Below are positions 1-11,967 of a DNA stretch of 15,654 nucleotides, one piece after another. Both the position numbers and the translations under genes were made by a program. Every line of letters starts with the position of its first letter. The first letter of the stretch is position 1. The DNA is from a virus: UHGV virus genome UHGV-1635749. The stretch is one strand, 5' to 3'. Under the pieces are notes generated by a model, which saw nothing but the letters and a program-made list of their open reading frames with translations, was not told the origin of the DNA and did no database searches.

Positions 1-187
1 AGCTTCCAGACCACCAGTTCATCCCCCGGCTGCATAGTGGCGATCAGCCGTTTTAGAACCGGCCGATTCGATTTCCTCCCGCTGGCATGCTCTTCAAAAA
101 TTTTCTCACAACCCGCTGACTTGAGCGCCGTTAGTTGCAATTCAGTGTCCTGGTGGTTTGTTGATACTCGGGCATAACCGTAAATCA
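1..187 (-). CDS. Serine recombinase, DNA invertase family (Gin/Pin/Hin/Cin-like), N-terminal 62 aa; gene continues beyond left edge
   Basis: Reverse complement from ATG (plus 185-187) translates MIYGYARVSTNHQDTELQLTALKSAGCEKIFEEHASGRKSNRPVLKRLIATMQPGDELVVWKL. This matches the serine recombinase N-terminal catalytic region (GY-RVST with active-site Ser, GC--IF-E--SG, RP-L--L, GD-LVVWKL). AGGAGA lies 6 nt upstream of the ATG. Not in the ORF track because no stop lies inside the window. Confidence 0.8.
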
Positions 188-192
188 TGGGA

Positions 193-219
193 TTTCTCCT
201 GTTATGAAAACAGGAGAAA
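193..219. promoter_or_regulatory. 27-nt near-perfect palindrome (11-bp arms) overlapping the invertase Shine-Dalgarno sequence
   Basis: tttctcctgtt-atgaa-aacaggagaaa: positions 193-203 are the exact reverse complement of 209-219. The AGGAGA ribosome-binding site of the invertase sits in one arm. Candidate operator or RBS-sequestering hairpin. Confidence 0.35.
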
Positions 220-263
220 CGGCGAAGTATCGCCAGATTTTTGGGGGTTATAAAAAAGGTTCC

Positions 264-3572: not shown

Positions 3573-3926
3573 TTATGCCTCGCTTGTTACAGTCGTCTGG
3601 CCGTAGATTGTGTCAATGGAGGAAGTGAAAGTGACGCGGCGGCTGGTGCCGTCATAATTGGTATCGAAGGAAAGAATCGACAGAACGCCCGGTGTATCCT
3701 GTATGCGTTCGCGTATAGCCAGGATGTAGACATCTGATCGCTGCTTCCCAAGCACTGACTGAACATACGGCGTGCCTTCCGTCAGATCGAGAAACCACTG
3801 ACCGCGCCACAGCTCGAAACGGGTTTTTACGGCCTGGGCGACACATTCCGGACTGTCGATAAGGAAAGTATCGTCACCCTGGCCGAAAGTGTAATCGCCT
3901 TCAGTATCTTCGCGACGGTATCGCAT
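3573..3926 (-). CDS. Baseplate wedge protein, gpW/gp25-like (117 aa)
   Basis: About 115-aa ORF sandwiched between the spike and the J-like gene, the canonical gpW position. Its start overlaps the spike stop. Confidence 0.6.
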   Translation of the reverse strand: MRYRREDTEGDYTFGQGDDTFLIDSPECVAQAVKTRFELWRGQWFLDLTEGTPYVQSVLGKQRSDVYILAIRERIQDTPGVLSILSFDTNYDGTSRRVTFTSSIDTIYGQTTVTSEA

Positions 3927-4666
3927 TATTGCGGCCCTCCAGTAGTTCCCCCGCCTGTCTGAACTCCGCCATGTTTATGCGTGGCGACACTTATACCTGA
4001 AGCTGTCACATCATTCGTTACCGTAACCGGCCCAAGCATCGTCGCAGTACCACCACTTTCTCCCATTCCCTGAGACAGGTTACCGTTAATCGTTACGTAG
4101 CCGTTCAGCGTGATAGTCGGGGATGTGATTGTCGTTCCACCTTCAGCCGTAGCCGTAAGCTGGCCCGGCGTTTTAATGGTGATGTTATGTCCTGCAGCGA
4201 CCTCTACGAACGCCGCGCCATCATCGGTTCGCAGCTGCGCGGCGCTGGTACTGATACCGCTGATTTTCTGTGCTTGCGACTGCGGGCCAACGATGGCGAA
4301 CGCATCAGATAAGTCATGCTGGCGCGGGTCGACGGTCTCCTGAACGCCGCCGCTCTGCCACCAAAAATCGATGCAACGGTCAGCAAAAATCAGGAGGCAC
4401 TCGTCGCCTTCTTTTACCGGAAAGGTCAGCGTGCAACCGCCGCCGCGCGGGAAGATGACCGGCACATCCACCAGCGGTTTTAATTCGGTGGAGTCGTCGC
4501 CAACAATACCGCGAAGCGCCACTTCTACTGTGCAGGTTACAGCGTCAGGATCGAACGACTGAATGATGCCAGGCATCGCCACGCGCATTTGGGTAGACAC
4601 TGAATCGGCAATGGCCTGGGCGGTCTGCTGCTCGCCGCCGATCTGTGATTGAGTTGGAATTGGCAT
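3926..4666 (-). CDS. Baseplate central spike, P2 gpV-like (246 aa from ATG at 4666)
   Basis: The C-terminus ...SVATHKHGGVQTGGGTTGGPQ resembles the P2 gpV C-terminal HTHKH...GGTTGSP motif as I recall it. The ATG at 4664-4666 follows the terminator T-tract with GGGG upstream. The track's longer ORF (to 4840) would read through the terminator and the cassette's 3' end. Confidence 0.75.
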   Translation of the reverse strand: MPIPTQSQIGGEQQTAQAIADSVSTQMRVAMPGIIQSFDPDAVTCTVEVALRGIVGDDSTELKPLVDVPVIFPRGGGCTLTFPVKEGDECLLIFADRCIDFWWQSGGVQETVDPRQHDLSDAFAIVGPQSQAQKISGISTSAAQLRTDDGAAFVEVAAGHNITIKTPGQLTATAEGGTTITSPTITLNGYVTINGNLSQGMGESGGTATMLGPVTVTNDVTASGISVATHKHGGVQTGGGTTGGPQ

Positions 4667-4675
4667 AAAAACCCC

Positions 4676-4702
4676 ATAAAAAAACCCGCTCGGTGGCGGG
4701 TT
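4676..4702 (-). terminator. Rho-independent terminator closing the AT-rich cassette
   Basis: On the minus strand: AACCCGC-CACCGA-GCGGGTT (7-bp stem, 5 GC pairs) followed by UUUUUAUGGGGUUUUU. The stem overlaps the stop codon of the 145-aa ORF; the U-tract runs straight into the spike ATG. Confidence 0.55.
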
Positions 4703-5138
4703 ATAATTTTGCTTCTGGATAACATCTACAGCGACCATCAGGACAACACTTTCCCTCTCCGGGATGACCACTTTTAGGCGGCTTACTCCACGAAAATGTT
4801 TTCCCATTATTTTTAGCGCATTCTGCACACTCGTCACCATCCTCGCAGGAGCGCCAAATATAACGTTTAATACCCAAGCGAGATTGCTTTATCCTCTCTG
4901 CCTCAGAGTGACGACGGCTATTTTCGGCGAGGTGTTCAGCATAGCGCGCGTTATCCTTCTCAATTTCTTCTTTACTTCGCCGCTTCCCATTTGCTGGCTT
5001 TGATTTTTGGTAAGCAACCCGTTTATTTCGATTGTATGATTTAATAATTTCGTCTTCATTTCTACGCTTTTTAAATTTTAAATATTTAACAAATGCAAAA
5101 ACAATTACGAATAAAATAATAATATATGCAGGTTCCAT
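4701..5138 (-). CDS. Membrane-anchored, basic, Cys-rich hypothetical protein (145 aa) in the AT-rich cassette
   Basis: N-terminal hydrophobic helix AYIIILFVIVFAFVKYL followed by KFKKRR (positive-inside). Lys/Arg/Glu-rich middle. C-terminal CEDGDECAEC...GKTF...HPGEGKCCPDGRCRC putative metal-binding motif. ATG overlaps the upstream stop (TAATG at 5136-5140). Strongly AT-rich codons. Confidence 0.55.
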   Translation of the reverse strand: MEPAYIIILFVIVFAFVKYLKFKKRRNEDEIIKSYNRNKRVAYQKSKPANGKRRSKEEIEKDNARYAEHLAENSRRHSEAERIKQSRLGIKRYIWRSCEDGDECAECAKNNGKTFSWSKPPKSGHPGEGKCCPDGRCRCYPEAKL

Positions 5139-5506
5139 TATTTAACCTTTACGCAATCATAAGTTGCATATTGTCTTGGTGCATCCATGCTGGCTTGCAG
5201 CCACTGAGCATTGAGGATAGCTTTTCCGTTTCGCTTGATGTACTCAAGACCAACCCATCGCCCCGGTTGGTTTGTAGCCATACGCCAATCCATTTTTATA
5301 TTTTCGTAGTCTTCTTTTTGTTTCAGAAATGTCAATTTCTGATACTCGGGCTTTGCTCCATTTATGCGAGGAAAGCCGTCATTAGTACCACTCGTTGAGA
5401 AAGTGAAATCACCGCACTTCATATAGACTTTTCCTGCTGCATTTGCACCGGCAGCAGCTGTTAAGCAAATTAAGCCAGAAAATATTCCTGAGATTATCCT
5501 TTTCAT
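5138..5506 (-). CDS. Secreted (Sec signal peptide) hypothetical protein (122 aa) in the AT-rich cassette
   Basis: N-terminus MKRIISGIFSGLICLTAAAGANA-AGK has a basic n-region, hydrophobic core and ANA-A cleavage-type site, with no canonical lipobox. Two Cys in the mature part. ATG (5504-5506) overlaps the hub stop TAA (5506-5508). Confidence 0.6.
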   Translation of the reverse strand: MKRIISGIFSGLICLTAAAGANAAGKVYMKCGDFTFSTSGTNDGFPRINGAKPEYQKLTFLKQKEDYENIKMDWRMATNQPGRWVGLEYIKRNGKAILNAQWLQASMDAPRQYATYDCVKVK

Positions 5507-6570
5507 TAGGCACCCGTTTTCATCAAAGTCGAATCATTAATCAGGGTAGAAGCTCCACGCGCAAAACACATCAAATCCATGTACCACGCTTGACCTCTAG
5601 TGTCACCAGTATAGTCGATAGCCTTGACGATATAAACGCCATCTGTCGCAATGCTGGCAGCCTGTGACGTCGTGCCGGTCAGCACACGGTTGCCGTTCTC
5701 TTCTGTTTCGGTGATACGCCCGGGCGACTGTGCGATTTCGCTATTGCCGAGCGCGGCGCGGTACACCGAAGCCTGATCGAGCTGGATAAGACCATTAATG
5801 CGGATGTTCGGGTTTATCAGGCACCGCACGTTTACGCCGCCGCCCATCGTCTGTTGCGGCATACCGATCAGGCCAGTATCAGCATTCAACACAATGGCTT
5901 CGTGAATATATTTATCCTCCGGCACCATCTGGACATGACCATCCACCAGTTGCCATGTCGCTTTGCACTGCGCAGCAATATTATCCATCACGTTGCGGCT
6001 GGATGAGTAAATCGCGCGGCCACGAGGAAACACGGTATCAGGAAAATCGCCGGTAATGCCCTGTGTCACGCCGAACGCGTTGAAATCCTGCATCGTCGCC
6101 CGGTGCAGATCCGCAACGGTATAGCCAGCGGCAAGCGTGGTGATGGTAGTCGCGTAGAGGAACGCTTCGTGGTTACTGATGGCCTGAATCAGCACCCAGG
6201 AATCCGTAATGTTGTCCTTCCCGGTGACGGTGAAGCGAATATCACCGTCAAATATCAGGCCGTAGTTCTGACCGTTCACCTGCCCTACCTGGTCTGGTGA
6301 AATCTCCCGGGCGACACCAACCTGGCTCGCATCAACATCCGGCGCAATACCGTCATACCCGGCAATGATGCGAATTTTTGCAAACTCCTGCCCCAGTATC
6401 TTGTTCGTGGTATCGGTCGAAAGGTTGTAAATTTTCACGTTTGCCACGCGCGGCCAGCGTGTATCTGCCCACTCGATCTGGAACGTGACCTTAAAATCAG
6501 ACAGGGAAATACCCTGCCCGTTCTGGTCCAACAGCTGCAACTCAAAATGGCGCATCCAGTTAAGAGACAT
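5506..6570 (-). CDS. Putative baseplate hub protein (P2 gpD / Mu gpP position; 354 aa)
   Basis: Size and position downstream of the tape measure gene and upstream of the spike/wedge genes. AGGAG 6 nt upstream of the ATG at 6570. Assigned by synteny only. Confidence 0.5.
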   Translation of the reverse strand: MSLNWMRHFELQLLDQNGQGISLSDFKVTFQIEWADTRWPRVANVKIYNLSTDTTNKILGQEFAKIRIIAGYDGIAPDVDASQVGVAREISPDQVGQVNGQNYGLIFDGDIRFTVTGKDNITDSWVLIQAISNHEAFLYATTITTLAAGYTVADLHRATMQDFNAFGVTQGITGDFPDTVFPRGRAIYSSSRNVMDNIAAQCKATWQLVDGHVQMVPEDKYIHEAIVLNADTGLIGMPQQTMGGGVNVRCLINPNIRINGLIQLDQASVYRAALGNSEIAQSPGRITETEENGNRVLTGTTSQAASIATDGVYIVKAIDYTGDTRGQAWYMDLMCFARGASTLINDSTLMKTGA

Positions 6571-6572
6571 TT

Positions 6573-6878
6573 CTACTCCTGCACGAAAATGAGGTGGCTG
6601 TATGTGCCGAGGTTGGTTTTGGTGGGCTCGTCTGGTGCGCCCTTATCGGTCGCCACCACCAGCGCACCATCAATGCCAAGCTGTGGAAATTGTCGTAAAA
6701 GGTTCACGCCGGTCAGTAGAGGTACGCCAGAGAGAAGCGCGGCACCGCCGCTATCCATCACGTCCATAATCCAACCAGCCGCATCGCGCCAGATGATCCT
6801 GAGCGTATACGTAGTATTGCCCAGCAAAACGCGGAACTGCTGATTGTCAGGAGAAAGCGGTATTTCGTTAAACTGCAT
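6573..6878 (-). CDS. Hypothetical tail protein (101 aa)
   Basis: ATG at 6878 with GGGGGA upstream, 1 nt after the preceding stop. Lies between the tape measure and hub genes. No family recognised. Confidence 0.5.
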   Translation of the reverse strand: MQFNEIPLSPDNQQFRVLLGNTTYTLRIIWRDAAGWIMDVMDSGGAALLSGVPLLTGVNLLRQFPQLGIDGALVVATDKGAPDEPTKTNLGTYSHLIFVQE

Positions 6879-6879
6879 A

Positions 6880-7482
6880 TCATCCCCCGAATGCTGATGT
6901 AACGCTTCCGCCCAGCTGGCTCAGCAAAGATTCGTTTGGCGGTGTAGTGGATTTCGTCCCGGAATTTTGCACCGCCGATGTGCTGACGCCATCCTGCATA
7001 TCTGATTTATCAGCAACGCTAACGCTCTGCGTTTGCGACATGATCACTTCACGCAGGGTAAGCGTGCAGTTCAGCACGTTCTCGCTGGTTTTGTCCGTTG
7101 TCACCTCGATGGCTCTCACCAGCATATTGCTGTACACCCGCTTCCCGGTCACCACATCGAACGGCACCCGGGAGGACTGGAGATCCAGCAGTTGCTGATA
7201 GGTCTCTTTCGGGCTCAGTCCGGCGCTGAGGCCGATTGAAGATGTATCAATGAAGTCCAGCAACGAACCGCCCCCAGCGAAGCCGCATTCCATTGTGACT
7301 TCGCTGGGGCGCTTATACGCATGATCGGCGATGAAACCCGAGGCGCTATTCGTTGTTGGCTTCTCCACCGGGTGCTCAGTAATTTCGAGCGCATCAGAAT
7401 GCTTTTCGGAAACGACCACGCTGGGGATCAGCAGGCCAATTCGCCGTGATTGCTGGCGAAAAATCGCTGATAAAATATCCAT
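6880..7482 (-). CDS. Hypothetical tail protein directly after the tape measure gene (P2 gpU / Mu gpN position; 200 aa)
   Basis: ATG at 7482 overlaps the tape measure stop (7482-7484) by 1 nt. Position typical of a tube-initiator or distal tail protein. No motif recognised. Confidence 0.5.
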   Translation of the reverse strand: MDILSAIFRQQSRRIGLLIPSVVVSEKHSDALEITEHPVEKPTTNSASGFIADHAYKRPSEVTMECGFAGGGSLLDFIDTSSIGLSAGLSPKETYQQLLDLQSSRVPFDVVTGKRVYSNMLVRAIEVTTDKTSENVLNCTLTLREVIMSQTQSVSVADKSDMQDGVSTSAVQNSGTKSTTPPNESLLSQLGGSVTSAFGG

Positions 7483-9749
7483 TATCTCGGTCCTGCGGGG
7501 AGTTGCTGGGTTAACTGTGAATTCACACCCTTTTGACGGTCAACAGTCAAACGGGCAGCTTCGCGAGGATCGGAAACGCCGTGGATGTTAATGTTCGTTT
7601 CCTGCTGAATCACCGGGGCGCTGGTGGGCATATTGCTCATTACTTTCGGAATGTAATTGCGCGTTTCCTGCGGCATTAGCCCCATTCCATAACGTTGAAC
7701 GTTCCCGATTCCCCAGTTATATGATGCAAGTGCTTTGCTAAGGTCTCCGCCGTTCTGCCGCAATAGCTGGCTAAGGTACTTAGCGGCTGCCTGAGCTGAC
7801 TTTTCCGGGTCGAACACATCGTTACCACGCAGGCCCATGTCTCGCGCCGTGCCATCCATGAACTGGAACAGCCCCTTTGCACCCGCGCCGGACATGGCGA
7901 ACTGGTTACCACCTGACTCGGTTATCGCCACACTTTTCAATAGACCAGCTGGAAGTTGATAAAGCGACTCAAGTTTATTGAACATTGGCCCCATCCAGTC
8001 GAGCAATACTTTGCCCTGGGCTGTGGCCTGTGGACGTTTGACTGATTGCGCAAACTGGGAGGGGTCACCCGATATATTTGGAGAGATTTCAGCAGCTCCA
8101 GCCGGGGAGAAAAATAAATTACCGATTTTGGCAATCCCGTCTGAGATTTTTTCAAGATAACCATTAGCAGCCTGCTGACGGTTTTTTATTTCATCTCTTT
8201 CATGCGGGGCAATTTCATTACTACGAACATGCTGTTCCGCCCCGGGAATGTCAGGCTGAACATTATCGCCATAAACGACGCCATTGCTTTGCGCCTGACG
8301 AATAATCTTACCTGGGCCACCATGCAGCCAATCCATCCATGCGGGCCATTCTCTTACCTCGCTAACATCTTTTCGCCCAAGGTCGGTTTTGATGCCAACC
8401 GTAGCAAGAGCATCACCAATGTTCCTTTTGGTATAGTCCAAAGATGATTTAGCACTGGCTTTTATGTTTTCACGATCTGAAACCAGGTAACCAGCATACG
8501 CTCCCCATAATTTAAGCCATGGAGGTATCGGAAGACCGGATATTTTTGCGAATGCTCCCAATACTTTTGTTACCCATACCCCAGCGATGAAAGTAGCCAA
8601 AATTTCCAGCGAGTTCTGCCATCCACCAACAGAATCTTTCAGCCCCAGAAGCTTATCGCGCAGCCAGAGAATTGCCTTTTTCGCCTTTTCTATTGCAGGC
8701 TCCCACTTGGACCAGTCAATCAGGCTTTTACCGCCTTCTTTCCACGTCTGATAATCGTCATAGAGTAATCCGATCGCCAGAATCAGCGTGGTGATAATTC
8801 CAATCGGGGATTTCAGGAACGCAGAATTAAGCAGACGCCATGCGACAAGTAGAGCACCGAATATTTTCAGCAGATTTTTACTGCCATCGTCAAGATGCTT
8901 CCACCAGTCAATGACAGAGCCAGCGCCCTGTATGAGCCGCCACGCCATTCGCGTGAAGGCGTTCGCAAGCCAGATCACGCCTTTAATAACTCTGGTCAGC
9001 GTCTCTTCAATCTTCGGGAAGTTGTCGAGGATGCGCCGCCGCAGGCTGTCCAGCGAACCAGCAAGACCACCAGCGAGGTTTGAGCCGATCTTGTCCCGCA
9101 TAATGCCGAACAGCGACGTAAGCCCGCGCATGGACGTCATGAATTTATTGGACTGCACAGCCGCCTTATCAGCGTTGAACCCAGTCTTTTGCAGCATAGA
9201 CTGGTAATCGGCGGTAAAGCCATTCATGCCGCGCCGCATCGCCATCAGCGTGTTTTCATCGATGCCAAGCATCTGCGCGTATTGCTTCGCGCGGTAATAC
9301 GGCATGTTGTTGAGCTTTTGCCCAACGCCAGTAAAGATGGCCGCAGTATCACGCATCTTTCCGCTGGCATCTCGGGTCTGGACACCAAGACGGTTCAGGA
9401 AGCCTTCCGCCCCCGGATTGCTACGCATGAAACCGGCCAGCCCTTCGAGGGAGGACATGGCCGACTCGGCGCTGGCACCGGTTTGCGACGCGGCATAGCC
9501 CAGCGCTTTGATGCCCTGGACGCTGGCCCCCGTCCGTTGGGATGCCCAGTAAATTTTATCCAGACCATTCGCGATCTGGGTGGTAAATCCGACAATGCTC
9601 AGCGCTGCGCCTTCCACCACCGCGCCGACCTTCAGAACGTTTGCGGTAACGCCTTTCAGCACGGCTTCAAACTTATTAGCGCCAGCCTGATCGATATCGA
9701 ATCCCAGCGAAACAAGGAAGTCTTTAATCGTATCTGCGTTACCGCTCAT
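7482..9749 (-). CDS. Tail tape measure protein (755 aa) with a C-terminal lytic transglycosylase (SLT-like) domain
   Basis: Long ORF directly after the chaperone/frameshift pair. Hydrophobic segments at about aa 292-330 and 381-400. Residues about 585-700 contain ITESGGNQ...GAKGLFQFM...AAKYL...ASYNWG, resembling the family-1 lytic transglycosylase E-S / GLMQ / AYNAG motifs. GGAG upstream of the ATG at 9749. Confidence 0.9.
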   Translation of the reverse strand: MSGNADTIKDFLVSLGFDIDQAGANKFEAVLKGVTANVLKVGAVVEGAALSIVGFTTQIANGLDKIYWASQRTGASVQGIKALGYAASQTGASAESAMSSLEGLAGFMRSNPGAEGFLNRLGVQTRDASGKMRDTAAIFTGVGQKLNNMPYYRAKQYAQMLGIDENTLMAMRRGMNGFTADYQSMLQKTGFNADKAAVQSNKFMTSMRGLTSLFGIMRDKIGSNLAGGLAGSLDSLRRRILDNFPKIEETLTRVIKGVIWLANAFTRMAWRLIQGAGSVIDWWKHLDDGSKNLLKIFGALLVAWRLLNSAFLKSPIGIITTLILAIGLLYDDYQTWKEGGKSLIDWSKWEPAIEKAKKAILWLRDKLLGLKDSVGGWQNSLEILATFIAGVWVTKVLGAFAKISGLPIPPWLKLWGAYAGYLVSDRENIKASAKSSLDYTKRNIGDALATVGIKTDLGRKDVSEVREWPAWMDWLHGGPGKIIRQAQSNGVVYGDNVQPDIPGAEQHVRSNEIAPHERDEIKNRQQAANGYLEKISDGIAKIGNLFFSPAGAAEISPNISGDPSQFAQSVKRPQATAQGKVLLDWMGPMFNKLESLYQLPAGLLKSVAITESGGNQFAMSGAGAKGLFQFMDGTARDMGLRGNDVFDPEKSAQAAAKYLSQLLRQNGGDLSKALASYNWGIGNVQRYGMGLMPQETRNYIPKVMSNMPTSAPVIQQETNINIHGVSDPREAARLTVDRQKGVNSQLTQQLPAGPR

Positions 9750-10352
9750 TGGCCGCTCTCCATTTATCTACCCGGGCGTCGTTATCCTCGCGCATGTCGA
9801 GGTAGTCATTGAGAAGCGCGATGCGGCAAAGGTCTACCGCACCGCTGTTAAGGTCTTTCTGGTCAATATGGAAGGCAAGCGCCGGACGAAGAATAAAATC
9901 TTCACCGCCCGGCAGGCTGTTGAAGGTTATTCCGCTGGCGGGGTGGGCGTCTCGCTGGTAGGGAGTCCTTGCAAAAAATTTCCCAGCGAGTCGGCGACCA
10001 CCCGCGCCACCAGTTGCAGCATGGTAAGCAGGTCGATATCGTCAAACGCCATTTCGCCATGCTGGCAGACCGGCACCCAGCCTTTCATGTGCTCGCGTGA
10101 AACAACGGAAAGACAGGGGAACAGGATAGCGTCCACGTCGCCATCACTCAGATCGGACACAGCATTGGCAATCTTTGGCAGGATGGTAGCCATCGCGCCT
10201 TCGGTGTCTTTGCTGCTGATCTTCTCCTGAACGCTCCGGAAGTCCGAAACCATCCCGGCCAGAACCGGCAACAGCTTGCGGGACACCTTCAGCTGTTCGA
10301 AAACGCTGAGCTTTGCGGTGCGATATTTCACGCCTTTAATTTCGAATTCCAT
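9739..10352 (-). CDS. Predicted -1 frameshift fusion product of the tail chaperone (about 205 aa; P2 E+E' / lambda G-T analog)
   Basis: The -1 frame is open from the slippery site (plus 9972-9984) for 79 codons (FFARTPYQRD...DKWRAANER) and stops at TAA 9739-9741, overlapping the tape measure ATG (A-ATG-AGC-GGT-AA). Confidence 0.5.
9927..10352 (-). CDS. Tail assembly chaperone (141 aa; P2 gpE / lambda gpG analog)
   Basis: Small ORF between the tube and tape measure genes, ending 178 bp before the tape measure start. That gap is filled by an open -1 frame (see the next two features). Confidence 0.7.
   Translation of the reverse strand: MEFEIKGVKYRTAKLSVFEQLKVSRKLLPVLAGMVSDFRSVQEKISSKDTEGAMATILPKIANAVSDLSDGDVDAILFPCLSVVSREHMKGWVPVCQHGEMAFDDIDLLTMLQLVARVVADSLGNFLQGLPTSETPTPPAE
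9972..9984 (-). other. Candidate programmed -1 ribosomal frameshift site (tandem slippery heptamers)
   Basis: Minus-strand GGGAAATTTTTTG read in frame as ctG-GGA-AAT-TTT-TTG contains G_GGA_AAT and T_TTT_TTG. Both are in the X_XXY_YYZ register relative to the chaperone frame, about 14 codons before its stop. Confidence 0.5.
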
Positions 10353-10355
10353 GCG

Positions 10356-10796
10356 TTAAAACTCCCCGAGAAGCTGGTCAATCTTGCCGCAGTCGAATAC
10401 CCAGGCGACGGTTCCGCCCTCTTTAGCGTTATTGAAATCAGGCTGTTTCTGGAATGCACACGAACGCGCAGTAGAAATATCACCCGATGCCGTGTTGCGA
10501 ATGACGATCACGTTATTGCCCCAGGTGGCAGAGGACTGGCTTTGCGCGTTATACGCCAGAGACAGCTTCTTGTTCACGGGGGAGGTTTTCAGCAGCGTCA
10601 CCGTAATGGTGCCTGACTTATCGGCGTGCAGGCTGTGCATCACTTCGCCATCGGCACCGATGGTCATGGTGTTCTTGTTGCCGCCCATAGCTACGGTGAT
10701 ACCTTCCTCAGAGTTCGCAGAACCCTGACCCAGATCAATAACACCGGTCGGACCGGTGAGCGACGCGGTTACATCGAGAAAAGAATAAGTTGACAT
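10356..10796 (-). CDS. Tail tube protein (146 aa)
   Basis: Sits between the sheath and chaperone genes, the canonical tube position for contractile tails. AAGGAG upstream of the ATG at 10796. Confidence 0.7.
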   Translation of the reverse strand: MSTYSFLDVTASLTGPTGVIDLGQGSANSEEGITVAMGGNKNTMTIGADGEVMHSLHADKSGTITVTLLKTSPVNKKLSLAYNAQSQSSATWGNNVIVIRNTASGDISTARSCAFQKQPDFNNAKEGGTVAWVFDCGKIDQLLGEF

Positions 10797-10806
10797 TTAT
10801 CGCTCC

Positions 10807-11967
10807 TTAGCGAACCACGTTGATCTGCACATCGGCATAATGAACTGCGCCAGCCAGCTTACAGGCCACCTGAATTAACGGTGCTTTGCGCGCTTCCCGG
10901 TCGGCCTGCGCCTGTTCGGAGAGGGGTTGCGCATACACGTAATAGCCTTTGGTCAGCGTATCGCCGGAATTCAGTTGTCCGATAGGGCCACCATTCCACA
11001 CGCCAGCCGCTACCAGACCGTTCGTGACGGACTGATCCATGGACTGTTCAACGTTGGAAAGCAGGCGGGTCACACCGGCATCAGTCTGCGGAATTTTAGT
11101 GGTGCTGGTGTAAAGCAGGTTATAGAGGTTGGTCTGAACGTAGTTCTGCAACCAGTCGAGCCCGTGGCGCTCGTCGAAGAAGTCACCGTTCGCCATGACA
11201 CCCTGTTGCAGGATCGCCGTGTCGTTGGCGTAGTACACGAACACGTTCGCGTTCTTCGTATCTACCGCAGCCGCCTGACCTAACGTCAGCGTTTCGTAGG
11301 TTACGCCTGGCTCCTGTTTGAACTTCAGGGTAATGGTGGTATTGCTGCCGTTGAAGTTAACAGTGAACGCACGACCGAACGCAGAAGCCGCTGCATAAGG
11401 GCTACTGGTGGAATACTGAATGAAAGTGCGGGAAAACTTGCCAGCCTTTAATTTCGACGCAACATCGGTCATTGAAGTCGTGCTGATAATCCCGGCGTCA
11501 GCAGAGGTCACACCAAAGATACGGCTAAGGCTGGACGCTTCAATAAGTTTGGCGACCTCAATCACGTCATCAGCATCAAGCACATCATCGCCATCAGCAA
11601 CATCATCAGCGACAACCAGCCCATACCAGTTGGTATACTGCAGGCAGGCATTAACAGCTTGCACGATGGTTTCCACGCTTCCACCTTCGGAAGAGGTCAG
11701 CGTCTTCGCCCAGCGGCCAACATAAACCTGCGTCGGCTTCGGTGACTGGCTGAAGAAAACCTGCGCTGCTTTATATTCCGGGCTGTCGACACCGAAGTCT
11801 TCGCCAATGTCCTCAACGGACGCATAAAGGCGAATACGCTCCTGCACCGGAATGACAGTGGAAGAACCGAGGATCAGCAGTGCGCCGAAGTTACGACCAG
11901 TAGCCGCTTTCGGCGAGATGATCACATCAACGTTTACAACGTTGGATACAGGTAAGCCCTGCGTCAT
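10807..11967 (-). CDS. Tail sheath protein (386 aa)
   Basis: Largest ORF immediately upstream of tube-chaperone-tape measure. Size and position fit a contractile sheath. Family membership not verified. Confidence 0.75.

Follow-up and report, generated by a model that had tools for sequence, protein, structure and literature searches.

A tape measure protein carrying a lytic transglycosylase domain in a prophage with an XM1/E217/Pam3-like contractile tail

Results

The tape measure gene and its neighborhood

We analyzed a window of 15,654 nt of phage DNA (UHGV virus genome UHGV-1635749), in which all of the features given here with coordinates are encoded on the minus strand. An ORF at 7482..9749 encodes a protein of 755 amino acids plus a stop codon, which the initial annotation had read as a tape measure protein (TMP). 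A PHROG profile search agrees: phrog_2276 (“tail length tape measure protein”) covers residues 1-754 with E=9.3e-220, and two other TMP families, phrog_12506 and phrog_8125, have matches confined to the N-terminal part. The Pfam family PhageMin_Tail gives only a weak match (E=8.7e-4; 19.6 bits vs. a gathering cut-off of 33.2). An identical protein is present in RefSeq (WP_029403911.1), where it is named “transglycosylase SLT domain-containing protein”, and a homolog at 89% identity bears the name “tail tape measure”. The identical sequence occurs in two E. coli strains, 81 and TOK-001. In strain 81, the gene lies inside a prophage remnant that has no head genes, and this copy may have no function in infection at all. 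At 1.5 Å per residue, we calculate a predicted span of about 113 nm for the 755 residues and of about 88 nm for residues 1-585; a literature search for a measured tail length of Hafnia phage yong1, the closest annotated relative, found no paper in the library searched.

The genes on either side are those expected around a TMP. Immediately upstream is a tail assembly chaperone gene (9927..10352; Phage_TAC_15 PF21822, E=4.4e-33) with a -1 frame extension (9739..9981) that matches the Pfam family DUF6889 (E=1.3e-11). A slippery heptamer, A_AAT_TTT, is located at 9981-9975, and the -1 frame is open from there to a stop codon at 9741-9739, so that the extension overlaps the first 11 nt of the TMP gene. 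The sequence GGGAAATTTTTTG at this site is also found in yong1. On the other side, a gene for a Dit-like tube initiator/baseplate protein (6880..7482; Dit_like PF21821, E=7.4e-31) begins at an overlap with the TMP stop codon and is followed by genes for a baseplate plug (6573..6878; Pam3_gp18 PF22479, E=1e-24) and a baseplate hub (5506..6570; phrog_196 “baseplate hub”, E=2.2e-82). The hub also matches the Pfam family E217_GP41 just under the cut-off (E=9.7e-6). Further along is a gpV-like central spike (3926..4666; spike N-terminal domain E=2.2e-41, Pfam GpV Apex E=9.7e-9), which probably starts at Met59 of its longest ORF; the spike of strain 81 is a 246-amino acid product according to PGAP. 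Capsid, cement and neck genes also lie within the window, which thus holds a complete virion module. The full-length phrog_2276 match and the gene's position, flanked by a frameshifting chaperone on one side and by Dit-like, plug and hub genes on the other, lead us to conclude that ORF 7482-9749 encodes the TMP of a temperate myophage, a prophage whose hosts are E. coli and related Enterobacteriaceae.

The initial annotation had set this protein in the context of a P2- or Mu-type tail, a view that the neighboring genes contradict. For the sheath, the sole match is DUF3383 (E=1.9e-103), and for the tube it is KPP10_Orf10/DUF3277 (E=1.1e-60); the cement protein is of the E217 gp24/Pam3 gp6/XM1 gp53 type, and the plug is of the Pam3 gp18 type. 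A P2/Mu-type tail is thus ruled out by the Pfam families of sheath, tube, plug and cement protein, and with the hub these identify the tail as XM1/E217/Pam3-like. The P2-like parts are limited to the gpV-like spike and a baseplate J protein.

A family-1 lytic transglycosylase domain near the C terminus

Near its C terminus the TMP carries a domain resembling family-1 lytic transglycosylases, as had been noted from sequence motifs and is now supported by a Pfam profile, motif alignments and a structural model. PF01464 (SLT, GH23) matches the whole protein at residues 589-689 (7683-7985) with E=1.2e-24 and 86.5 bits, well above the gathering cut-off of 21.3. When the profile check proposed in the initial annotation was run on residues 561-755 alone, it returned E=1.2e-25 and 89.8 bits. 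Sequence searches of the PDB identified MltD (8rhe; E=3.6e-10), the tape measure protein gp41 of phage Pa193 (9b45; 5e-9), T7 gp16 (8e-8) and Slt70 (6e-5).

An AlphaFold2 model of residues 561-755, built on a 105-sequence alignment of diverse representatives, has a mean pLDDT of 91.9. An earlier model from a shallow alignment (10 sequences, 75-99% identical over the modeled region) reached a pLDDT of 45 and was discarded. In the accepted model, a helical domain with pLDDT 92-98 spans fragment residues 17-145, which places the folded lytic transglycosylase domain at residues 577-705 of the protein (7635..8021). The best 50 Foldseek matches in the PDB are all family-1 lytic transglycosylases (TM-score normalized to the query 0.47-0.60), including MltD, Slt, Slt70, MltF, MltC, MltE, LtgA and T7 gp16, and the predicted domain has their goose-lysozyme-like, all-alpha catalytic fold. 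MltD (8rhe) superimposes on the model with an rmsd of 2.3 Å over 150 columns at 30% identity, and Slt70 (1qte) with an rmsd of 1.9 Å over 141 columns at 28% identity. Matches to the NCBIfam models for MltD, MltF, Slt and a flagellar lytic transglycosylase all fall far below their equivalog cut-offs, which marks the domain as a phage-specific branch rather than an ortholog of a named cellular enzyme.

The motif strings first read from the sequence are exact in wording and position: ITESGG lies at residues 609-614, GAKGLFQFM at 623-631 and SYNWG at 676-680, within a region (residues 585-700) that corresponds to positions 7997-7650. The predicted catalytic acid/base is Glu611, encoded by the GAG codon at 7917..7919 and followed by Ser612. 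In alignments without gaps, Glu611 pairs with the catalytic Glu478 of Slt70 (residue 455 of 1sly against residue 588) and with Glu37 of T7 gp16 (residue 15 of 7eyb against residue 589). Motif II, the GLMQ-like block G626-L-F-Q629, is encoded at 7863..7874, motif III, the AYNAG-like block Y677-N-W-G680, at 7710..7721, and motif IV, E695-T-R-N-Y699, at 7653..7667. The last of these aligns to PQETQDYVPK of Pseudomonas aeruginosa MltD (8rhe), and the motifs as a set align to those of MltD, Slt70 and gp16. All four (Glu-Ser, GLFQ, YNWG and ETRNY) are invariant across 11 homologs with identities down to 64%. Among more distant relatives, aligned as representatives of 50%-identity clusters, glutamate occupies the Glu611 column in 142 of 144 and serine the next column in all 144; Gln629 is retained in 134 of 144, and the tyrosine and asparagine of motif III in 147 and 146 of 148, respectively. 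Given the invariant Glu-Ser pair and motifs II-IV, we expect an active enzyme rather than a binding module, and on these sequence grounds catalytic activity is likely.

Modular architecture and a module swap in sibling proteins

Outside the transglycosylase domain, the protein falls into regions with very different degrees of conservation. The N-terminal core (residues 1-370; 8640..9749) is nearly invariant in the 11 homologs and shares 59% identity with a TMP that has no SLT domain, from Klebsiella phage RCIP0098. It is followed by a hypervariable spacer (residues 371-560; 8070..8639) in which GC content dips locally to 0.455-0.49; the range of homolog lengths, 662-765 residues, stems from indels and replacements within this spacer. 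Two hydrophobic stretches (residues 293-335 and 380-403; 8541..8873), with maxima of 1.5-1.98 in a 19-residue Kyte-Doolittle window, are putative membrane-inserting segments. Beyond the SLT domain, a C-terminal tail (residues 706-755; 7485..7634) contains a helix predicted at residues 728-749 (7503-7568; fragment residues 168-189 of the AlphaFold2 model, pLDDT 82-95), and even the RCIP0098 protein, despite having no SLT domain, retains the corresponding C-terminal peptide (QQxNxxxIxG...RQ). By analogy with Pa193 gp41, whose residues 840-858 bind the tail tip, this C-terminal tail is probably the part that docks there or on the hub. The TMP is therefore modular, with an N-terminal core, a hypervariable spacer, an MltD-like SLT domain and a conserved C-terminal helix.

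In the RCIP0098 protein, the place of the SLT domain is taken by a lysozyme-fold domain of the family PHA02564, the family of the Hafnia phage Enc34 endolysin (PDB 7q47), for which muralytic activity has been proven. This swap suggests that selection favors having a wall-degrading module here in the TMP. By host, the SLT domain is found in members from E. coli, Citrobacter and Hafnia, and the PHA02564 domain in phages of Klebsiella, RCIP0098 among them. One tentative reading of this pattern, which we consider less likely than not, is that the TMP is a fixed scaffold, made of the N-terminal 370 residues and the C-terminal docking helix, with an exchangeable wall-degrading cassette after the hypervariable spacer.

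Comparison with known systems

To have the transglycosylase in the tape measure protein had been taken as a siphovirus trait, and by implication as unusual in a myophage. The arrangement is in fact published for the myophages P1 (Sit) and Pa193 (gp41), and its rarity had been overstated given that this exact protein is already named for its SLT domain in RefSeq and that the fusion is common. In a PHROG scan that took in 77 of 93 long cluster representatives, at least 62 of these 77 distinct 50%-identity clusters with a near-C-terminal SLT domain have a TMP-type N terminus. The TMP-SLT fusion is real, was correctly read, and was already known.

The P1 protein Sit (“structural injection transglycosylase”) is the P1 tape measure protein and carries an SLT domain in its C-terminal third, at residues ~750-900 of 1140; this domain was proposed as the wall-degrading activity at entry, as the gp5-like needle of P1 has no lysozyme domain (PMC9024508). 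Like the protein described here, Sit is an SLT-carrying TMP of an E. coli myophage. It is longer (1140 vs. 755 residues, a comparison made through the published description), and the P1 tail and baseplate are T4-like whereas those of the window are XM1/E217/Pam3-like. Pa193 gp41, the “lytic tail protein” of a Pbunavirus (PDB 9b45), is the TMP of a myophage that falls in the same structural class as the window, its hub and cement protein being of the E217 type. The two SLT domains share 31% identity as well as the Glu-Ser, GLxQ and Y-x-x-G blocks. However, the Pa193 domain lies at residues 491-582 of 858, so that about 276 residues follow it compared to about 50 here, it has no ETRNY motif IV region, and beyond the SLT domain a direct sequence match between the two proteins is not significant. 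Pa193 is also a virulent Pseudomonas phage, whereas the window is from a temperate enterobacterial prophage. Cryo-EM shows density for gp41 inside the lumen of the tail as well as at the tip, and the authors propose that the transglycosylase domain is ejected and then folds in the periplasm (PMC11456595).

The yong1 protein gp63, annotated “transglycosylase SLT domain protein”, is of the same family end to end, with 64% identity overall and 74% in the SLT region; the difference in length (662 vs. 755 residues) is confined to the hypervariable spacer. T7 gp16, with structural matches 9jyy and 7k5c, is also a virion-borne family-1 transglycosylase used at entry. But T7 is a podovirus, and its SLT domain is N-terminal in a capsid-core protein of ~1300 residues, which upon ejection forms a tunnel across the envelope and does not act as a ruler of tail length. 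In mycobacteriophage TM4, a wall-degrading module within the siphovirus TMP aids infection of stationary-phase cells (PMC1796659; review, PMC6116005). The TM4 Tmp and T5 Pb2 thus embody the same concept as the protein described here, but in non-contractile tails. Their catalytic modules are also of other kinds, an Rpf-like motif in Tmp and a peptidase-type domain in Pb2. Lastly, MltD (8rhe) and Slt70 (1qte) have the catalytic fold and motifs in common with the phage domain but serve the cell as housekeeping enzymes, either periplasmic or lipoproteins, and carry accessory domains of the LysM or superhelical kind.

Discussion

We propose that the TMP delivers an MltD-like transglycosylase, with Glu611 as its catalytic residue, to the host cell wall at entry, and we regard this mechanism, taken as a whole, as probable. 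In the virion, the TMP would fill the tail tube with its C terminus docked on the hub and spike. Once the sheath has contracted and the spike has been lost, the C terminus would exit first and deliver the SLT domain to the periplasm, where it would cut MurNAc-GlcNAc bonds locally and leave 1,6-anhydroMurNAc ends. The opened peptidoglycan mesh would then let the tube and a TMP conduit through to the inner membrane. If the hydrophobic segments of the TMP insert into this membrane, as their composition suggests, they may help to build a DNA channel there. The SLT domain would be a virion-associated entry lysin and not a lysis enzyme, and it probably matters most where the wall is highly cross-linked (stationary phase, low temperature), as for the TM4 Tmp and T7 gp16. 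Both the activity and the timing of the domain are what we infer from these comparisons. In the virion, the domain may be unfolded or stacked, because three globular copies of ~130 residues would fit poorly side by side in the lumen of the tube.

A role in wall cleavage might be questioned on the grounds that the mechanical force of the contracting sheath could suffice to pierce the thin Gram-negative wall. Moreover, the Pam3 TMP is described as all-alpha and neither peptidoglycan nor lysozyme appears in the text of the Pam3 paper, which suggests that tails of this type can do without an enzyme on the TMP. The SLT domain might then be kept as a non-catalytic module, either a peptidoglycan binder or a structural plug or spacer in the tube or baseplate, with cleavage dispensable for entry. 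We consider this improbable, since close homologs show no variation in the catalytic Glu-Ser or in motifs II-IV, distant ones nearly always retain them, and a sibling lineage carries another catalytic fold in this position. It is more doubtful still that the 755-residue protein is some other tail or ejection protein in the TMP slot and does not determine tail length. The varied names of its homologs (“lytic tail protein”, “internal (core) protein”, “tail fiber protein/lysozyme”) and the PhageMin_Tail match under the gathering threshold would fit such a protein, but the tail module holds no other ORF long enough for a TMP, the gene lies in the canonical slot after a frameshifting chaperone and has a full-length TMP PHROG match, and the Pa193 homolog is a TMP by cryo-EM density (PMC11456595).

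The least probable of the alternatives, in our judgment, is that the SLT domain serves not phage entry but late host lysis, in the manner of an endolysin, or a tailocin-like killing particle. Several of the PHROG families that match the domain are labeled “endolysin”, and the head-less remnant of strain 81, with its identical gene, could in principle make tail-like particles. Against these roles, the domain is fused inside a 755-residue structural protein that has no signal peptide, the window holds a complete virion module, and yong1 has a dedicated holin, lysozyme and Rz (gp42-44), on which basis we rejected the domain as the phage endolysin. By analogy with yong1, the phage described here presumably also has a separate endolysin, encoded in a lysis cassette outside the window. 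Given the separate holin-lysozyme-Rz cassette of yong1, the most likely role of the SLT domain is in entry, as an enzyme carried by the virion.

These results add little new biology; they confirm a correct annotation and assign the prophage tail to the XM1/E217/Pam3 structural class. They also suggest that [quoted passage not shown] would be a better label for this gene than “SLT domain-containing protein” alone. For myophages, experiments on the share of a TMP-borne enzyme in entry are thin, and Glu611 offers a clean target for weighing that share in a contractile-tailed phage. If the swaps between SLT and PHA02564 domains are adaptive to the wall of the host or to its state of growth, such natural chimeras would provide a direct test of the role of the TMP-borne enzyme in contractile-tail entry.

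The tape measure gene and its tail module

The window carries a phage morphogenesis module with its genes on the minus strand. Within it, the ORF at 7482-9749 (minus; 755 aa) matches phrog_2276, 'tail length tape measure protein', across its entire length in a PHROG search (E=9.3e-220), and its N-terminal 560 aa taken alone also match several tape measure protein (TMP) families. The minus-strand order begins with sheath (10807-11967; DUF3383), tube (10356-10796; KPP10_Orf10/DUF3277) and tail assembly chaperone (9927-10352; PF21822), and the TMP is followed by a Dit-like tube initiator (6880-7482), a Pam3-type plug (6573-6878), an E217 gp41-like hub (5506-6570), and then a gpV-like spike, a gpW-sized ORF, baseplate J, DUF2612 and fibre, all on the minus strand. 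The chaperone gene contains a perfect slippery heptamer, A_AAT_TTT (9981-9975, minus), a predicted canonical -1 programmed-frameshift signal that is also kept in Hafnia phage yong1 (about 9750-9762 of its sequence). From the heptamer the -1 frame is open for about 80 codons (9739-9981, minus), matches Pfam DUF6889 and stops 11 nt inside the TMP gene; a chaperone with its -1 extension is the classical G/GT-type arrangement preceding tape measure genes. PGAP calls the DUF6889 stretch as a separate small gene, which has no obvious start codon.

The DUF3383 sheath, DUF3277 tube, Pam3 gp18 plug, E217 gp41-like hub and a cement protein of the E217 gp24/Pam3 gp6/XM1 gp53 type place the predicted virion in the XM1/E217/Pam3 structural class. 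The initial annotation had set the protein in a P2- or Mu-type context, and these sheath, tube, plug and cement families rule out such a tail. Citrobacter phage Omnitron shares 95% nucleotide identity across 74% of the window length and yong1 is about 75% identical. The early genes of yong1 are lambdoid and its holin-lysozyme-Rz cassette is separate from the TMP, which argues by analogy that a TMP-borne domain is not the lysis enzyme.

Variable regions elsewhere in the module

The gap between hub and spike holds a low-GC insert (4701-5506, minus; GC 0.385-0.43 versus about 0.54) with two small minus-strand ORFs: 5138-5506 (122 aa), with a signal-peptide-like N-terminus and a match to phrog_3443, of unknown function, and 4701-5138 (145 aa), with an N-terminal hydrophobic helix, a Cys-rich C-terminus and weak Mu F/SPP1 gp7-like matches. 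The slot is filled by different small genes in yong1 and in E. coli strain 81, which suggests a hotspot for morons or cargo. The longest spike ORF (3926-4840; 304 aa) overlaps the ORF upstream by 140 nt; since PGAP gives a 246-aa spike product in strain 81, the true start is probably Met59 (MPIPTQ..., about 4666). At the left edge, window 1-261 shares 95-98.5% identity with the DNA invertase (pin) region of HK225, phi80 and mEp237, a region with annotated IR3 repeats in those phages. This edge adjoins a 66-aa ORF (264-464) and the putative tail fibre gene (449-1714, minus; 421 aa), an imperfect 16-nt inverted repeat lies at 438-453/753-768, and the edge may be what remains of an invertible host-range switch, or one portion of it. 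The fibre has no match in Pfam or NCBIfam. Its C-terminal half, very rich in Gly (GGGGASG..., GAGGVGGAGPGGSGGDGG), is divergent relative to the closest phages, and receptor specificity probably depends on it.

In strain 81 (NZ_CP088131.1, about 12300-28000) an identical TMP gene belongs to a prophage remnant lying between ybhB/bio and ybhC, in the lambda attachment region. This remnant retains the sheath-to-fibre genes and lambda-like int, xis, kil and cIII, lacks head genes, and has a sheath gene of 1491 nt versus 1161 nt in the window. Its mosaicism is extensive, and the element may be defective or tailocin-like.

A family-1 lytic transglycosylase domain in the TMP

The initial annotation had read a lytic transglycosylase into the C-terminal part of the TMP (residues 585-700, window 7997-7650), and its quoted motifs all lie where it placed them: ITESGG (aa 609-614), GAKGLFQFM (623-631) and SYNWG (676-680), with the Glu611 codon GAG at 7919-7917 (minus). 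The SLT profile match it expected was found both with aa 561-755 alone (PF01464, E=1.2e-25) and with the whole protein (aa 589-689, E=1.2e-24, 86.5 bits against a cut-off of 21.3); the SLT-like motifs are not a chance match. An NCBIfam profile search of the TMP gave sub-threshold matches only. Among solved structures searched by sequence, the best relative is P. aeruginosa MltD (8rhe, E=3.6e-10), followed by the TMP gp41 of Pseudomonas myophage Pa193 (9b45, E=5e-9), T7 gp16 (6yt5/7eyb, E=8e-8) and E. coli Slt70 (1sly, E=6e-5). Glu611 aligns with residue 478 of Slt70 and residue 37 of T7 gp16, the catalytic glutamates of those enzymes, and motif IV of the TMP (PQETRNYIPKV) lies opposite PQETQDYVPKL of MltD. 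Glu611, Ser612, GLFQ, YNWG and ETRNY are invariant across 11 homologues with identity down to 64%. A wider comparison took the 150 best cluster representatives (50% identity) of a library of 1.84 billion proteins: the Glu611 column holds E in 142 of 144 aligned sequences and the Ser612 column Ser in all 144, while Tyr677 is kept in 147/148 and Asn678 in 146/148.

Residues 561-755 were modelled with AlphaFold2 from an alignment of 105 sequences (mean pLDDT 91.9), and in a Foldseek search of the PDB the 50 best matches to this model are, without exception, lytic transglycosylases. The model superposes on MltD at 2.3 A (150 columns) and on Slt70 at 1.9 A (141 columns); Slt, MltF, MltC, MltE, LtgA and T7 gp16 are also among the matches. 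The motif-complete domain, folded in the model, ends about 50 residues before the C-terminus, and a helix is predicted with confidence at aa 728-749. Every defining feature of family-1 enzymes that can be examined by sequence or structure was found, and the domain is, on sequence and model, a family-1 lytic transglycosylase with a predicted intact active site. PHROG and PF01464 matches, gene order, motifs and AlphaFold2/Foldseek all bear out the original reading, and we regard the two identifications jointly, TMP and family-1 enzyme, as nearly certain.

TMP-SLT fusions are already known

With the domain as query, the number of matching cluster representatives is 43,234 for E<=1e-3 and 10,995 for E<=1e-10. 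In the 109 best-scoring representatives at least 450 aa long, the domain lies within the last 40% of the chain in 93 and is N-terminal, as in T7 gp16, in 12. A PHROG scan of 77 of these 93 found phrog_2013 ('lytic tail protein') in all 77, phrog_2276 in 74 and phrog_8125, a TMP family that covers only the SLT-free N-terminal part of the window protein, in 62. Therefore, TMP-SLT fusions form a family that is both large and diverse and has been catalogued before. PF01464 is present in all of the best 120 database homologues, one source names an 89%-identical homologue 'tail tape measure', and a chromosomal gene in E. coli strains 81 and TOK-001 is 100% identical to the window's TMP gene, its product (WP_029403911.1) being named 'transglycosylase SLT domain-containing protein' by PGAP.

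The fusion type seen in the window is thus a known one: yong1 gp63 and WP_029403911.1 are annotated members of the same family, and the closest known cases, P1 Sit and Pa193 gp41, are both myophage TMPs with SLT. These two and the catalogued family contradict the hint in the initial annotation that the arrangement is unusual for a myovirus. T7 gp16 also carries a virion-borne SLT, and the TMPs of siphoviruses TM4 and T5 carry muralytic modules.

Proposed role in entry and apparent exchange of the wall-degrading module

In P1, the SLT within Sit has been proposed to stand in for the lysozyme missing from the needle (PMC9024508). In Pa193, the C-terminal end of gp41 contacts the tail tip, and its transglycosylase domain has been proposed to be ejected and to fold in the periplasm (PMC11456595). 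By analogy with Pa193 and P1, we propose that in the virion the hub and spike anchor the TMP C-terminus, which would leave first after contraction and spike release. Once out, the SLT domain would cut glycan strands locally, and the tube and TMP conduit would then arrive at the inner membrane; the hydrophobic segments of the TMP (aa 293-335 and 380-403) may take part in channel formation there. We hold this whole sequence, from docking to inner-membrane conduit, to be reasonably probable.

Comparison of homologues separates conserved from variable parts of the protein. SLT-bearing homologues conserve aa 1-370 and 561-755, whereas aa 371-560 (window 8070-8639) form a hypervariable spacer that is replaced or deleted (homologue lengths 662-765 aa). 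Even homologues 80-96% identical overall differ there, either through stretches of unrelated sequence or through indels as long as about 95 aa, and GC falls to 0.455-0.49 versus about 0.54 in the flanks. This variation and the GC drop suggest recombinational mosaicism inside the TMP gene, and spacer variants possibly give different tail lengths. The 640-aa TMP of Klebsiella phage RCIP0098 (OR532892.1, 3498-5420) is 59% identical to the window TMP over aa 4-370 (367 aa) and has a similar extreme C-terminus, yet lacks SLT. In its place is an NNPGNIR-motif domain with the PHA02564 lysozyme fold, which matches 7q47 (Enc34 endolysin, PHA02564), 9vvp ('Gp29' chain), phrog_873 'endolysin' and phrog_7182 'tail injection transglycosylase'; the Enc34 endolysin is muralytic by experiment. 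Within one TMP lineage, the wall-degrading module seems to have been exchanged as a cassette on a conserved scaffold. The comparison also argues that muralytic function at this position in the TMP is under selection.
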